Assembly: GCA_902605215.1 (NCBI GenBank)
Contig: CACLBX010000001.1
Coordinates: forward strand, 35,504 to 99,503
Reading direction: 5' to 3'
DNA from: an uncultured Pelagibacteraceae bacterium
GTDB taxonomy: Bacteria > Pseudomonadota > Alphaproteobacteria > Pelagibacterales > AG-422-B15
Length of the DNA: 64,000 bases
Shown here one piece after another: positions 8,277-46,536 of the stretch. The stretch's first letter is position 1. Every line of letters starts with the position of its first letter. Both the position numbers and the translations under genes were made by a program. A model generated the notes under the pieces. That model saw nothing but the letters and a program-made list of their open reading frames with translations. It made no database searches and had not been told where the DNA came from.

Positions 8277-8696
8277 ATGATAGATGTAAAAAAATTGTGC
8301 AGTGAAAAAGGTTTAAGGATGACTGAACAGAGAAATACTATAGCAGATGTCATAACCAAGATGAGTGCAGAAGGACATCCTGATGTAAATGAAATTTTTT
8401 TAAATGCGAATAAAAAAGATAAAAATATCAGTATTGCCACAGTTTATAGGACAGTTAAATTATTTGAAGAATACGGGGCTATTGAAAAACTTGAATTTAA
8501 AGATGGTAGGTCTCGTTATGAGGCGATTGAAGAATCTCATCATGATCATTTAATTGATATTGAAACCGGAGAAATACACGAATTCACAAATGACGAAATA
8601 GAAACTATACAGGCTAGAGTTGCTAGCGAACTCGGTTTCAAACTTGTTGATCATCGTTTAGAGCTTTATGGAGTTAAGAAAAAAAATAAAAATTAA
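8277..8696 (+). CDS. fur: Fur-family metalloregulator (Fur/Mur type)
   Basis: 139 aa. Winged-helix N-terminus (RMTEQRNTIADVI.. ATVYRTVKLFEE) and metal-site motif EESHHDHLID. No CxxC pairs. Confidence 0.82.
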   Translation: MIDVKKLCSEKGLRMTEQRNTIADVITKMSAEGHPDVNEIFLNANKKDKNISIATVYRTVKLFEEYGAIEKLEFKDGRSRYEAIEESHHDHLIDIETGEIHEFTNDEIETIQARVASELGFKLVDHRLELYGVKKKNKN

Positions 8697-28110: not shown

Positions 28111-28203
28111 TAAGGTTATTTATCTCATTGTTTTATATGAAGTTTAATTAGACTAATGTATTATTATTGTAAAATACATTAAATTTTATTAAATAGTAAA
28201 ATT

Positions 28204-28596
28204 ATGAATGATATTAAGCAGTTGCTAAGATCTAATGCCTTGAGGCCAACAAAGCAAAGAATAGTTATAGCAAGCTATTTATTTGATGGTAATGATAAGC
28301 ATGTAACTGCTGAAAGCTTGTCTACGGAGCTTGCTAAAAGAAAGCACTTAATATCACTGGCCACAATTTATAATACACTTCACGATTTTTATGAAAATGG
28401 ACTTTTGAAAAAACTTACTCTTAGTGCTGATAGAGTCTATTTTGATACAAATACAGATGATCATCATCATTTCTATTCTGAAAAAGACCAATTCCTAATT
28501 GATATTAATAAGAACATAAAAGTAAATGGCTTGCCTAAGACTCCAAAAAATAAAAAAATTAATAAGATTGAAGTTATTGTACACCTCGATAAGTAA
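28204..28596 (+). CDS. irr: Fur-family iron response regulator, Irr type
   Basis: 130 aa. Winged helix (RPTKQRIVIASYLF.. ATIYNTLHDFYENG), DDHHHF triple-His motif as in rhizobial Irr, no Cys-Pro heme-regulatory motif and no CxxC. Divergent from fabA as in many alphaproteobacteria. A perfect ICE operator lies 24 nt downstream. Confidence 0.8.
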   Translation: MNDIKQLLRSNALRPTKQRIVIASYLFDGNDKHVTAESLSTELAKRKHLISLATIYNTLHDFYENGLLKKLTLSADRVYFDTNTDDHHHFYSEKDQFLIDINKNIKVNGLPKTPKNKKINKIEVIVHLDK

Positions 28597-28613
28597 TTGA
28601 TAATAGTTATCAA
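28597..28613. promoter_or_regulatory. perfect 7-N3-7 palindrome TTGATAA-TAG-TTATCAA (Fur-box-like GATAA/TTATC arms)
   Basis: Read directly. Begins at the base after the irr stop codon, 6 nt upstream of the ICE. A regulatory function is inferred only. Confidence 0.4.
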
Positions 28614-28619
28614 TATCAG

Positions 28620-28636
28620 TTTAGAATGATTCTAAA
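28620..28636. promoter_or_regulatory. iron control element (Irr operator) TTTAGAA-TGA-TTCTAAA
   Basis: Both arms are identical to the B. japonicum ICE consensus TTTAGAA-N3-TTCTAAA. Sits in the promoter region of a rubrerythrin gene next to an Irr-type gene. Confidence 0.7.
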
Positions 28637-28639
28637 GTG

Positions 28640-28667
28640 TTGACAATATTTGAATCAACCTTATATA
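28640..28667 (+). promoter_or_regulatory. candidate sigma70-type promoter of the rubrerythrin operon (TTGACA-16 nt-TATATA)
   Basis: -35 TTGACA at 28640-28645 and -10 TATATA at 28662-28667; GAGGA ribosome-binding site before the ATG at 28708. An alternative -10, TAGAAT at 28622-28627, lies inside the ICE. Confidence 0.45.
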
Positions 28668-28707
28668 GAAAAATAATCATTAATTAATTATTGTTGAGGA
28701 AGAAGAC

Positions 28708-29127
28708 ATGACTGAATTAAAAGAAAGTAAAACGCTTGATAATTTGAAAGCAGCATTCGCTGGTGAAAGTCAAGCAAACAGAAGATATTTATATTTTGCT
28801 CAAAAGGCAGACGTAGAAGGCCACAATGATGTAGCTGCAGTATTTAGGTCTACTGCCGAGGGTGAAACTGGCCATGCTCATGGTCATTTAGAATTCATGG
28901 AAGAAGTTGGCGATCCAGAGACTGGTAAACCAATTGGATCAACAGAAGATAACCTAAAAGCTGCAATCGCAGGTGAAACGCATGAGTACACGGATATGTA
29001 TCCTGGGATGGCAAAGACAGCACGAGAAGAAGGTTTTGATGAAATTGCAGACTGGTTTGAAACGTTAGCAAAAGCTGAAAAATCTCACGCAGGTAAATTC
29101 CAAAAAACACTAGACTCAATCGATTAA
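28708..29127 (+). CDS. rubrerythrin-family diiron protein without rubredoxin domain (erythrin type)
   Basis: 139 aa. Diiron ligand helices [39 protein letters not shown]. No C-terminal CxxC..CxxC domain. Confidence 0.87.
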
Positions 29128-29134
29128 GTTATTT

Positions 29135-29155
29135 GGGGCTGTAATAAACAGCCCC
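29135..29155 (+). other. GC-rich stem-loop GGGGCTGT-AATAA-ACAGCCCC between rubrerythrin and the Fe-S gene (no T-run)
   Basis: Perfect 8-bp stem read directly, 7 nt after the rubrerythrin stop and 11 nt before the next ATG. Confidence 0.55.
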
Positions 29156-29166
29156 TAACTTAAATA

Positions 29167-30507
29167 ATGGATTACAAAAAAGAAGGAAGCCTTGCTGCAC
29201 CTACTAGGGACCTAGTAGATTGGAATTCTGAAAGTTACACCAACGAAGAAGAGTTAAACGCCGAGATGAAAAGGCAGTTTGAGGTTTGTCATAGTTGTAG
29301 AAGATGTTTTAATCTCTGTGACAGCTTTCCGACGTTATTTGATTTGATTGATGACTCTCCAAATGAATCAGTTGATGACCTCACCAAGAAAGATTTTGAA
29401 GACATTACAGATAAATGTACGCTATGTGATATGTGTTTCATGACTAAATGTCCATACGTTCCACCACATGAATTTAACATTGATTTTCCTCACCTTATGT
29501 TGCGTTATAGAACTCTTCAGGATAAGCAAAATAAGTTGCCAAAAATTCCTAGAGAGCTGGCTAAAATAGATCGCAATGCTAATCTTGCCAAAATTTCTAC
29601 CAGTTTTGCAAATTGGAGTTCTGACAAAAAAAATAGTCTAACACGGCGACCACTGGAAATGATAAGTGGCATTGATAAAGACGCTGAGTTACCCAAGTTC
29701 GAAAAAAAGACATTCCACGAATTATCAGAAAAGATTGATATTAAAGTAAATGCAAATGCACCTGCTTTCGGAAGAAAAGTTGCAATTTACTCAACGTGCT
29801 ATGTCAATTTCAATAATTCAAAGGTTGGAATTGCTGCTCAAAAAGTACTAAATCATAATGGTGTTGAAACTATTTCTTCATATCCCGGATGCTGCGGTAT
29901 GCCACATTTAGAGCAAGCTCAGCATGAAAAAGTAATTAAACAGTCCGAAATTGTTTCTGATGAACTCTGCAGCTTGATAGACCAGGGATATCAAATCGTT
30001 ACTTTAACTGCGAGTTGTGGACTCATGCTTAAATTTGAATGGCCACTTCTCAATCCTAATAATAAAAATGTAAAAAAACTTTCAAAAAATGTTTTTGATA
30101 TTGATGAGTTTATCGTTGATATAAGTAAAAAAGAGGGATTAGTTGAAGGTCTTAATTCCCTTGATGGAGGAGTGACGGTTCACAATGCATGTCACGCAAG
30201 AGCTCAGAACATGGGCAATAAAGCTATGGAGATGTTAAAGAAATTACCTGATACAAAAGTTGATGTTGTAGAAAAGTGCGCAGGGCATGGAGGAACTTTT
30301 GGAGTTATGAAGAAAACTCGAAAGTCAGCAAATAAGTACGGCAAAGCAACAGCTAGACAAATTAAAAATAAGAAAAATAAGTTAATGGTTTCAGATTGCC
30401 CTCTTGCTTGCAAGCACCTTAATGAGTTTTTAAATGAAGACAAAGACTCAAATTATATTTCAATGCATCCAATAGAAGTAGTAGCTCAAGCATACAATCT
30501 CTCTTGA
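29167..30507 (+). CDS. (Fe-S)-binding oxidoreductase, GlpC/HdrD/LutA-like (2x ferredoxin-type clusters plus 2 CCG domains)
   Basis: 446 aa. CHSCRRCFNLCDSFP and CTLCDMCFMTKCPY, then the CCG-type regions STCYVNF..PGCCGMP and NACHARA..KCAGHGG..SDCPLAC. Confidence 0.75.
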   Translation: MDYKKEGSLAAPTRDLVDWNSESYTNEEELNAEMKRQFEVCHSCRRCFNLCDSFPTLFDLIDDSPNESVDDLTKKDFEDITDKCTLCDMCFMTKCPYVPPHEFNIDFPHLMLRYRTLQDKQNKLPKIPRELAKIDRNANLAKISTSFANWSSDKKNSLTRRPLEMISGIDKDAELPKFEKKTFHELSEKIDIKVNANAPAFGRKVAIYSTCYVNFNNSKVGIAAQKVLNHNGVETISSYPGCCGMPHLEQAQHEKVIKQSEIVSDELCSLIDQGYQIVTLTASCGLMLKFEWPLLNPNNKNVKKLSKNVFDIDEFIVDISKKEGLVEGLNSLDGGVTVHNACHARAQNMGNKAMEMLKKLPDTKVDVVEKCAGHGGTFGVMKKTRKSANKYGKATARQIKNKKNKLMVSDCPLACKHLNEFLNEDKDSNYISMHPIEVVAQAYNLS

Positions 30508-30538: not shown

Positions 30539-31132
30539 ATGACTATAGAAAATCGAAAAATTGAATCCTCTGATCTACTTGAGTATAGCGCTTATGCGAA
30601 AGAAAGAAGAAGTATAAGAAAAGAGGTAGTTCAGATGAAAAAAAATAGGAGAGTAGAACTCGGGCCTCATTCTACGTTTTACTTTGAAAATTTCTTTACT
30701 ATGAAAGCTCAAATTCAAGAGATGCTTTACATAGAAAAAGGTGGCGATGAACAACTCAAAGATGAGTTAGAGGCTTATAATCCTCTTGTACCACAAGGCT
30801 CAGAACTTGTAGCAACTTATATGTTTGAAATTGACAATCCAATCACAAGAAAAAAGGTTTTATCGTCCTTAGGAAATGTTGAGAATAAGTTATTTATAAG
30901 TATTAATGGGACAAAGCTATACGCGGCACCTGAAGAAGATGTAGATCGTACAGATAACTCAGGAAAGACTTCCTCTGTTCATTTTATTCATTTTAAATTT
31001 AGTGATAAGCAAGTTGAGGAATTTAAAAATTCAAGCAGCAAAATTGAGATTGGAACAGACCACGATAACTATCTTCATAGTACTGTGTTGTCTAAAGAAG
31101 TGAAAGAGGCCTTGGCAAAAGACTTTAGGTAA
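30539..31132 (+). CDS. DUF3501-like protein (uncharacterised, cysteine-free)
   Basis: 197 aa. From memory, the pattern KKNRRVELGPHSTFYFENFFTM..QIQEML..EAYNPLVPQGSEL..SSVHFIHFKF resembles DUF3501 proteins found next to rubrerythrin/Fe-S genes. Needs an HMM check. Confidence 0.6.
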   Translation: MTIENRKIESSDLLEYSAYAKERRSIRKEVVQMKKNRRVELGPHSTFYFENFFTMKAQIQEMLYIEKGGDEQLKDELEAYNPLVPQGSELVATYMFEIDNPITRKKVLSSLGNVENKLFISINGTKLYAAPEEDVDRTDNSGKTSSVHFIHFKFSDKQVEEFKNSSSKIEIGTDHDNYLHSTVLSKEVKEALAKDFR

Positions 31133-45339: not shown

Positions 45340-46536
45340 TTAAGCTACTTTACGACCTTTATTGATTTGTTCAAGTTGTGCTAATCCTTCGTTTGCTATA
45401 TCAATTCCTGCAACTTCATCATCTTCAGCGTTAAGCTCTTCCATATTTACAAATTCAGCGTAAGTTTTTCTCGTTCTTTCAGTTATGATATTTGCTTTAA
45501 GTAACGTTTTACACAGTACTCTAAATATGTTGTTACTTTCCATCATTTCTTCGCGTATTACAGTGTCTCGGTCAATCTCTTGCATAAAATGTTTAGTTAC
45601 AAATTTATGATCTAGGCCAACGCTTTGATAGATTGCTTTCTTTTCCCAAGGATTAACAAGATTATAAAGTAAATCTTTGAAAATCATAGCCGACCAATCT
45701 TCTACCTTGTATCTTTCTGATTCTGATAGTTTTGGAACTGTTCTATCTGCCCAAATTTTACCAAACTTATGATGAAAAGCTTCATCGCTCATTGTAAATT
45801 TCAAAAGAGTTTTTAAGAGAGGATCATTTGTATCCTGGTGCGCCATTCCAAAAGCTCCCATAGCAAGTCCTTCAATCATCATTTGCATACCAACAATCTT
45901 TTTATATACAACGTCAGATGACACGATTTGCTCTAAAATTCTTCCAAGAGTTGGACCAACCGGATAAGGAGACCCCCATCTTGCCTTTATATAATTAGTG
46001 AAGCCAGTGACATGTCGAGCTTCTTCACGGGTTTGGTTAGCTGCGTATTCTTGTGCACCTGGATCTTTTAGTACATGACAAAGGCTTGCGCTTAAAGATA
46101 ATGCACCTTGCTCACCATGTAGAATTTGAGAAAGCACCCATCTAAAACTTTCGTTATTTAATTTAATTTTTTGCTTTTCAGTCAAGCTATTAGCAATTGC
46201 AGGAACTCTAAGTTCCATACAAAAGACATTAGGATCGACTATGTATTCATTTTCCATATCAAACGGTTCCTCGAAATCAATATATGACTTGTCATTAGGG
46301 TCCCAAAAATGTTTATGAGTAGCTGATATCATCTGATCAAAACTATCAACTCTTTCAATGTACCTATCTTTTTCTATCATTGGTATGAAATGGCTAGGGT
46401 TGGCGGCGTTATATGCTGGATCTTTATTCATCGCATTTTTTCCATTACGCGACATTTGCCACATTCTTTTCAATTTAAAGATCTGATCTTTTGCATATAT
46501 TTTCGCAAAATCTAATTTTTGTTGTAGTTCAGCCAT
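45340..46536 (-). CDS. ferritin-like diiron-carboxylate protein of unassigned family (possible oxygenase/desaturase-like enzyme)
   Basis: 398 aa. Ligand pattern E142 (HGEQGAL), E172-x2-H175 (REEARH), E222 (MIEGLAMG), E252-x2-H255 (SDEAFHH), with spacing 30/50/30. About 130 aa N-terminal and 140 aa C-terminal extensions have no motif I recognise. Confidence 0.5.
   Translation of the reverse strand: MAELQQKLDFAKIYAKDQIFKLKRMWQMSRNGKNAMNKDPAYNAANPSHFIPMIEKDRYIERVDSFDQMISATHKHFWDPNDKSYIDFEEPFDMENEYIVDPNVFCMELRVPAIANSLTEKQKIKLNNESFRWVLSQILHGEQGALSLSASLCHVLKDPGAQEYAANQTREEARHVTGFTNYIKARWGSPYPVGPTLGRILEQIVSSDVVYKKIVGMQMMIEGLAMGAFGMAHQDTNDPLLKTLLKFTMSDEAFHHKFGKIWADRTVPKLSESERYKVEDWSAMIFKDLLYNLVNPWEKKAIYQSVGLDHKFVTKHFMQEIDRDTVIREEMMESNNIFRVLCKTLLKANIITERTRKTYAEFVNMEELNAEDDEVAGIDIANEGLAQLEQINKGRKVA

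Follow-up and report, generated by a model that had tools for sequence, protein, structure and literature searches.

The question raised by this locus is what a perfect palindrome is doing in the short space between the gene for an iron response regulator (irr) and a rubrerythrin gene (rbr). The locus lies in a 64-kb stretch of DNA from an uncultured SAR11 bacterium (Pelagibacteraceae; contig CACLBX010000001.1; approximately 28–36% GC), here called the window, and the palindrome is a 17-nucleotide (nt) inverted repeat of the iron control element (ICE) type. How these bacteria match their few peroxide defenses to the supply of iron bears on their ecology in iron-poor, high-light surface waters.

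Irr/ICE control of a SAR11 rubrerythrin has been predicted before, and the present site is a confirmation, not a discovery: an ICE-profile scan of Alphaproteobacteria placed the rubrerythrin of Pelagibacter ubique in a minimal Irr/ICE regulon (Rodionov et al., 2006; PMC1698941). What we add is a quantitative phylogenetic footprint, a geometry between the ICE and the −35 hexamer that is fixed across very different genomes, a regulated gene that can be swapped among unrelated peroxidases while the operator stays in place, and, for SAR11, a candidate Fur-type site as a further input. Together, the additions amount to a simple, testable promoter model, which could explain why rbr rises slightly, instead of falling, in iron-limited P. 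ubique.

The reading that we favor, with a probability of about 0.6 on the sequence evidence, is that the 17-mer is an Irr operator in the promoter of a peroxide-defense operon (rbr-RFO-DUF3501) that Irr would repress, and that a second palindrome directly upstream, designated Box A, probably provides an input from Fur.

A perfect iron control element between irr and rbr

The 17-mer TTTAGAATGATTCTAAA is, as an earlier note on this DNA had claimed, a perfect 7-N3-7 inverted repeat whose two arms are identical to the ICE consensus. It agrees at every position with the degenerate consensus TTTRGAAYNRTTCYAAA of Rodionov et al. (2006; PMC1698941), and a longer version of the palindrome, with arms of 11 nt, has a single mismatch (CAGTTTAGAAT/ATTCTAAAGTG). 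Twenty-three nt lie between the irr stop codon and the motif, its first base being the 24th nt past the stop, and the motif is 71 nt upstream of the rbr ATG and 3 nt ahead of a TTGACA hexamer; the note's placement of the element relative to both the stop and the hexamer therefore stands.

Shuffled sequence, against which the note had proposed to weigh the motif, almost never produces it: dinucleotide-preserving shuffles give an expectation of 0.01 exact matches to TTTAGAANNNTTCTAAA per 64-kb window. When up to three mismatches are allowed, 21 matches are found where 27 are expected, i.e., no excess over chance, and because the relaxed motif is this common only the perfect copy is remarkable. 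The note had also seen no second full copy by eye, and our search of the 64-kb window likewise returned no second good ICE. The sole other matches to TTTRGAAYNRTTCYAAA, at 45731 and 60572, have two mismatches each and were rejected as further ICEs, both lying within long open reading frames (ORFs).

Conservation of the element across Irr loci

We compared 30 SAR11 loci from a genome collection, five places found through Irr homologues, and 80 metagenome loci. When ICE positions were counted at no more than one mismatch in 116 Irr loci (484 kb), 81 fell within 200 nt downstream of irr, 11 just upstream of it, and none elsewhere. Sorting the loci by the gene that follows irr, and allowing two mismatches, we found the ICE at 70 of 73 rubrerythrin loci, nine of nine KatG loci, and the single peroxiredoxin locus, versus none of 23 loci with other genes. 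The three rubrerythrin loci with no ICE call have 3-mismatch variants at the corresponding place. Of the KatG assignments, one was confirmed directly (L105, 1019 bits) and the other eight were made by tblastn to L105. The conserved triad of regulator, operator, and target that the earlier note suspected is thus borne out, and in its rubrerythrin form it spans SAR11 and many other Alphaproteobacteria.

At finer scale, the 49 nt that run from the irr stop through the −35 are identical at 42–46 positions between SAR11 clades, whereas four-fold degenerate sites between the same clades are just 35–54% identical. Between the −10 and the ribosome-binding site, by contrast, the sequence diverges and has indels. 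As judged from these alignments, the comparison shows strong purifying selection on the 49-nt block.

These data bear on an alternative in which the palindrome arose by chance in AT-rich intergenic DNA, or serves irr as an RNA hairpin or terminator. The low GC content of the genome and the chance-level frequency of motif versions with up to three mismatches would be in keeping with such an origin. An exact match, however, is hardly expected by chance, the site is kept in genomes of up to 65% GC, and it is found exclusively adjoining irr. The RNA fold is no better than that of shuffled sequences (z = −1.1). We rejected a hairpin or terminator role for the two palindromes on this z-score and on the lack of any terminator-like site; Rfam gave no match for the palindrome region. 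The chance and RNA-element readings, to which we assign next to no probability, are already refuted by the conservation data.

A separate pattern concerns the target itself. Over loci L001–L117 (27–65% GC), rubrerythrin is 80–99% identical, versus 43–96% for Irr and 49–98% for the Fe-S oxidoreductase. The protein sequences could reflect unusually strong conservation of rbr or, possibly, its recent horizontal spread.

The operator is kept when the regulated gene is exchanged

The gene that follows irr is not always rubrerythrin. In one SAR11 lineage (L034; JGI 3300032006 Ga0310344_10040402, 1231–1888), whose Irr is 62–63% identical to that of the window, a peroxiredoxin gene takes the place of the rbr-RFO-DUF3501 cassette. 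Its surroundings are fabA upstream and the dUTPase and DFP genes downstream, with the dUTPase gene placed as in the window. After the irr stop, this locus keeps AATAATAATAATTCTCATTATCAG-TTTAGAATGATTCTAAA-GTA-TTGACT. Elsewhere among AT-rich marine Alphaproteobacteria, some lineages have katG in this position (L085, L092, L097, L099, L105, L116, L090, L095, and L106). Retention of the ICE despite the exchange of its cargo points to selection on control of an adjacent peroxide scavenger by Irr, and not on rubrerythrin specifically.

Four SAR11-like loci (L041–L044; Irr 52–57% identical) keep the fabA-irr pair and have a convergent gene next. Neither a peroxidase gene nor an ICE was found downstream of irr in these four, and with both absent the target of Irr must lie somewhere else in those genomes.

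The regulator and its target operon

The gene upstream of the ICE is indeed of the Irr type, as the earlier note had it. Its product scores above the NCBIfam IrrA equivalog cut-off (151.6 bits vs. 150) and has an HHH heme motif (residues 87–89). Its DNA-reading helix SLATIYNTLHDF, which contains Asn57, is nearly invariant in the alignment from SAR11 Irr through rhizobial-type IrrA. This score, the HHH motif, the invariant recognition helix, and the fabA-irr synteny together support, at the level of sequence, assignment of the product as an Irr orthologue. CxxC motifs and an N-terminal heme regulatory motif are absent from its sequence. The closest solved structure is that of PerR; no solved structure of Irr exists for modeling its DNA contacts.

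Two residues discriminate PerR from Fur, and Irr carries the PerR version of both. One is the Asn of helix H4; the other is an Asp at the regulatory site (Asp100 here, the PerR/Irr-type position). The presence of the PerR-type Asn and Asp in Irr has been reported before (PMC8638967). The pair fits a role for Irr as a regulator of peroxide defense.

Downstream, the rubrerythrin identity proposed in the note also stands (Pfam PF02915, 108 bits). The product is a di-iron four-helix bundle only, and Pfam found neither a rubredoxin nor a VIT1 domain in its 139 amino acids (aa). Together with the CCG-domain Fe-S oxidoreductase (RFO) and DUF3501 genes, rbr makes up an aerobic-type RBR-RFO-DUF3501 cluster as defined by Cardenas et al. 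(2016; PMC5114695). In P. ubique, rbr (SAR11_0399) mRNA increased 1.57-fold under iron limitation (P = 0.025; PMC2864753) and fell to 0.17-fold in sulfur-limited stationary phase (PMC5069961).

In the window, a hairpin between rbr and the oxidoreductase gene has no T run after it, and the terminator scan did not call it. The stem differs in other SAR11 clades (AGGGACTG..CAGTCCCT and AGGGGCT..AGCCCCT), where some of the stems precede a T run. The hairpin is a possible partial terminator or mRNA stabilizer; the former suggests that rbr would be left more abundant than the two genes downstream.

Promoter layout and the sign of regulation

The consensus −35 next to the ICE is followed after a 16-nt spacer by TATATA, and TAT recurs at this spacing in three divergent SAR11 clades (TATATA, TATCTT, and TATTTA). 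Our generic promoter scan missed TATATA because it requires a T at position 6. From this layout, transcription of rbr is predicted to start near 28673–28675, which would center the ICE at about −46 and give a 5′ untranslated region of about 34 nt. The earlier note had also pointed to TAGAAT, inside the ICE, as an alternative −10. The letters are there, but we rejected them as a promoter element, given the 19-nt spacer from TTGATA and the TAGAAC found in a sister SAR11 clade.

Of 70 loci, from genomes of 27–62% GC, 63 have a gap of 3 nt between the ICE and the −35 (among distinct sequences, 31 of 37); the gap is 2, 4, or 5 nt in the remainder. The −35 itself is a consensus TTGAC(A/T) in genomes of 27–65% GC. 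The linker reads (C/G/T)-T-(A/G), making a 21-base-pair (bp) palindrome AGTTTAGAA...TTCTAAACT in many lineages, so that the operator effectively stops 1 nt ahead of the −35. In katG promoters the ICE overlaps the spacer and the −10, as in TTGACT-17-TATAAA with TTTAGAATTATTATAAA.

A sister AT-rich clade has a more elaborate arrangement. Two ICEs flank the −35 at its rbr promoter (ICE1-N3-TTGACT-N4/5-ICE2), and the right arm of ICE2 (TTATAAA) is the −10 (L065, L066, L070, L080, L081, L083, L086, L088, L089, L093, and L094, and further L096, L098, L100, L107, and L109). A third ICE, 43–85 nt upstream of irr, implies autoregulation in this clade. Both of these additional sites are missing from the window. 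The 17-mer over the spacer and −10 was rejected as a second ICE, having about six mismatches and being unconserved in other SAR11 clades, and an autoregulatory ICE upstream of irr, though present in the sister clade, is absent: none was found in the fabA-irr intergenic region of the window. The half-site-like TTTGAATCA at 28649–28657, in the promoter spacer, is probably a decayed relic of the second ICE known from the sister clade.

In Bradyrhizobium, the location of the ICE decides whether Irr activates or represses (PMC7762939). We judge repression to be the likelier mode at this promoter, for several reasons. All lineages have a −35 that matches consensus, as promoters dependent on an activator seldom do, and a gap that tolerates 2–5 nt favors occlusion over a phase-dependent mode of activation. 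The ICE sits on the −10 in the sister-clade rbr promoters and in the katG promoters. Irr represses its known peroxide-related targets, mbfA and ccpA, and in three genera mutation of irr increases resistance to peroxide (PMC3413700). Finally, rubrerythrin is a di-iron protein and would be a sensible one to spare at low iron.

Activation would instead have Irr, bound at a site centered near −46, contact RNA polymerase in a class-II-like manner and switch on rbr at low iron or heme. The position of the ICE upstream of the −35, off the core promoter, would suit this role, as would the preserved 3-nt gap and the increase of rbr mRNA in iron-limited P. ubique, and direct activation is comparatively common for Irr (PMC7762939). 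Yet with a consensus −35 and a reasonable −10 the promoter ought to work without an activator, and some lineages depart from the 3-nt spacing. The ICEs over the −10 in the sister clade and at katG are repressor arrangements, with Irr again as the regulator and a peroxidase gene again as the target, and repression is also the rule at the known peroxide-related targets. We regard activation as rather unlikely but as a rival to be taken seriously.

Box A, a candidate Fur operator

The earlier note overlooked a second palindrome, similar to a Fur box, directly upstream of the ICE. Box A follows the irr stop immediately, reads ATTGATAA-TAG-TTATCAAT (a perfect 8-N3-8 repeat), and ends 5 nt before the ICE. 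Written as a 7-1-7 repeat it is TGATAAT-A-GTTATCA (28598–28612), with one mismatch to the 7-1-7 Fur box TGATAATNATTATCA. For scoring we took the Escherichia coli 19-mer GATAATGATAATCATTATC as consensus; the minus strand of 28599–28617 matches it at 16 of 19 positions. Box A is the sole match to this 19-mer in the window at up to three mismatches, where 0.17 are expected.

All of the SAR11 clades sampled keep a Fur-like box at this position (15–16 of 19), and its conservation equals that of the ICE. The bases that do change leave the Fur-type pattern intact, with TGATAAT-A-ATTCTCA found both in the clade with 74% Irr identity and in the peroxiredoxin lineage. No box of this kind occurs at this position in irr-rbr loci from outside SAR11, save for a weak, AT-rich match in L051.

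Positions 2 and 14 of the repeat are G/C in Box A, as in Fur boxes, versus T/A in the ICE. Preference between PerR and Fur boxes follows an Asn/Arg rule in the DNA-reading helix (PMC8638967), by which the G/C of Box A suits Fur (Arg) and the T/A of the ICE suits Irr (Asn). The window encodes a second Fur-family protein, at 8277–8696, with Arg in its DNA-reading helix H4 (SIATVYRTVKLF) and Glu at the regulatory position. Its best NCBIfam matches are Fur models, all below their cut-offs. On these sequence features, Box A may be a Fur operator, making this a promoter that integrates Fur and Irr, a tentative claim for which we put the chances a little short of even.

The two palindromes might alternatively form one extended Irr region, occupied by two dimers or an oligomer and with no role for Fur. 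They lie 23 bp apart, center to center, or about two helical turns; both are Fur-family boxes of the 7-1-7 type with a common AAT-N-ATT core; and two ICEs occur at this promoter in other lineages. In addition, heme at a second site modulates the oligomeric state of Rhizobium leguminosarum Irr in vitro (PMC7762939). Nevertheless, the half-sites TGATAA of Box A and TTAGAA of the ICE differ just where Fur and PerR/Irr boxes differ, the Asn of Irr disfavors the Fur-type G, and outside SAR11 no sequence like Box A accompanies the ICEs. An extended Irr region seems to us somewhat unlikely.

A model for control of the operon

In R. leguminosarum-type Irr, the apo-protein binds the ICE and heme at the HXH motif abolishes binding (PMC7762939). 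Under the repression that we favor, heme-free Irr, the form present at low iron or heme, would bind the ICE as a dimer. The ICE and its conserved flanks would reach to about 1 nt from TTGACA and span approximately −56 to −36, and bound Irr would stand in the way of sigma-70 region 4 and of the alpha C-terminal domains, so that expression of the iron-costly rbr operon stays low. Heme at the HHH site, or a heme- or metal-dependent oxidation, would then release Irr and let a strong promoter fire. This logic would resemble that of PerR, whose distinguishing Asn and Asp are found in Irr. Through Box A, the Fur protein encoded in the window probably contributes a second, Fe(II)-dependent input, although this is the least certain step. 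At low iron, loss of Fe(II)-Fur could cause a small rise in rbr mRNA despite repression by Irr.

Several observations weigh against this model. The ICE lies upstream of the −35 and overlaps neither core hexamer, and the 1.57-fold rise of rbr mRNA under iron limitation is in the wrong direction for a simple low-iron repressor. The peroxiredoxin found as cargo in one SAR11 lineage is iron-independent, which weakens the iron-sparing rationale. As for Box A, Rodionov et al. (2006; PMC1698941) predicted just the fbp operon as Fur-regulated in P. ubique, and because fbp was their only such prediction Box A appears to be unreported. No other Fur-like box was found within the window for comparison, and neither the window nor the compared loci yielded an iron-uptake (sfu/fbp) locus.

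A broader proposal, which we offer as possible but speculative, would take in the cargo exchange as well. In SAR11 and numerous other marine Alphaproteobacteria, the position after irr would be a peroxidase slot, in which an ICE, 3 nt, and TTGACA drive whichever scavenger the lineage carries, be it aerobic-type rubrerythrin, KatG, or a peroxiredoxin. In such streamlined genomes Irr would be essentially a PerR-like regulator of peroxide defense and not one of iron uptake, and a Fur operator confined to SAR11 would let two Fur-family paralogues integrate Fe(II) signals with heme or oxidant signals at a single promoter.

Comparison with known systems

The nearest precedent is the P. ubique HTCC1062 SAR11_0399 site, to which that of the window is orthologous; it shares the SAR11 lineage, Irr, the rubrerythrin target, and the minimal regulon (PMC1698941). 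The main text of that study mentions neither Box A nor the geometry of the promoter, and it is likewise silent on the exchange of downstream genes. The three genes downstream of the ICE exactly match the cluster of Cardenas et al. (PMC5114695), in whose report a term search finds no mention of Irr, so that apparently no link between the cluster and Irr was drawn there.

The Bradyrhizobium japonicum genes blr7895 and bfr (bll6680) share with our site the 17-bp ICE consensus and an Irr with an HXH/HHH motif and are bound and repressed by Irr (Rudolph, 2006; Sangwan, 2008; as cited in PMC3413700). Like the rubrerythrin of the window, these targets have a di-iron, ferritin-like domain tied to oxidative stress. 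The earlier note had named blr7895 as a rubrerythrin-like founding ICE target. As an annotation this is correct, and Irr is proven to act on the gene through an ICE (PMC3413700), but blr7895 is not an orthologue of this rubrerythrin: it groups with MbfA, in which a ferritin-like domain is fused to a VIT1-type membrane exporter (PMC3413700; PMC7762939), and the rbr product of the window, a soluble 139-aa protein, lacks this fusion. The two are analogous, not orthologous, targets. The regulators differ as well, in that B. japonicum Irr has a heme regulatory motif and is degraded, whereas the SAR11 protein has no such motif.

Rhodobacter sphaeroides Irr offers a functional parallel, being a repressor with a minimal regulon for peroxide and iron detoxification whose loss makes cells more peroxide resistant (PMC3413700). 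Its targets are, however, mbfA and ccpA, and its affinity in vitro is low (PMC3413700). At mbfA the 5′ end falls within the Irr box, and at ccpA it comes about 40 nt downstream of the box (PMC3413700), whereas the ICE of the window abuts the −35.

PerR regulons are also comparable, with control of catalase, peroxiredoxin, and ferritin-like genes. In Bacillus subtilis, PerR represses katA, ahpCF, and mrgA. PerR and Irr are both Fur-family repressors with Asn in H4, Asp at the regulatory position, and 7-1-7 boxes lacking the Fur-type G. Irr differs in sensing heme, and not H2O2 directly through an Fe(II) site, in having no structural Zn(Cys)4 site, and in its box sequence.

Gene neighborhood

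The features of the locus are collected in Table 1. The nearest genomic relatives of the window are Pelagibacteraceae single-cell genomes, with Irr identity of up to 96%. The irr gene is divergent from fabA-fabB-fabI, and the fabA-irr synteny is kept in nearly all related loci.

Table 1. Coordinates of the irr-rbr locus and of the second Fur-family gene in the window.
Feature	Position	Strand	Description	Evidence or context
irr	28204–28596	+	130 aa, Fur-family iron response regulator	Pfam FUR 64.5 bits; NCBIfam IrrA; alignments; fabA-irr synteny
Box A	28596–28614	no strand	Perfect 8-N3-8 palindrome, candidate Fur operator	Centered about −69 from predicted start
ICE (Irr box)	28620–28636	no strand	TTTAGAA-TGA-TTCTAAA	Centered about −46 from predicted start
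−35 of rbr promoter	28640–28645	+	TTGACA	3 nt past ICE
Predicted −10	28662–28667	+	TATATA	16-nt spacer
Ribosome-binding site	28696–28702	+	GAGGAAG, 5 nt ahead of rbr ATG	GAGGA/AAGGA core kept in alignment
rbr	28708–29127	+	139 aa, aerobic-type rubrerythrin	Pfam Rubrerythrin PF02915, residues 11–134, 108 bits
Hairpin	29135–29155	+	GGGGCTG-TAATAAA-CAGCCCC	Between rbr and Fe-S oxidoreductase gene
CCG-domain Fe-S oxidoreductase (RFO)	29167–30507	+		Pfam CCG; NCBIfam GlpC-like, score under cut-off
DUF3501 protein	30539–31132	+	197 aa, third gene of cluster	Pfam DUF3501, 209 bits
fur	8277–8696	+	139 aa, second Fur-family gene of window	Hidden Markov model search of window ORFs; ORF list

The fur product has no CxxC motifs. 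Its gene starts 12 nt past the preceding ORF on the same strand, and the next ORF begins at its stop; having no upstream intergenic region of its own, fur is probably not autoregulated from its own promoter.

The divergent intergenic region between fabA and irr contains a perfect 9-bp inverted repeat at 28154–28181 (TAATGTATT-N10-AATACATTA). Its core, GTATTATTATTGTAAAATAC, is almost invariant across SAR11 clades, including those without rbr. The repeat may be the irr promoter, with TTGTAA as its −35, and/or an operator for irr or fabA.

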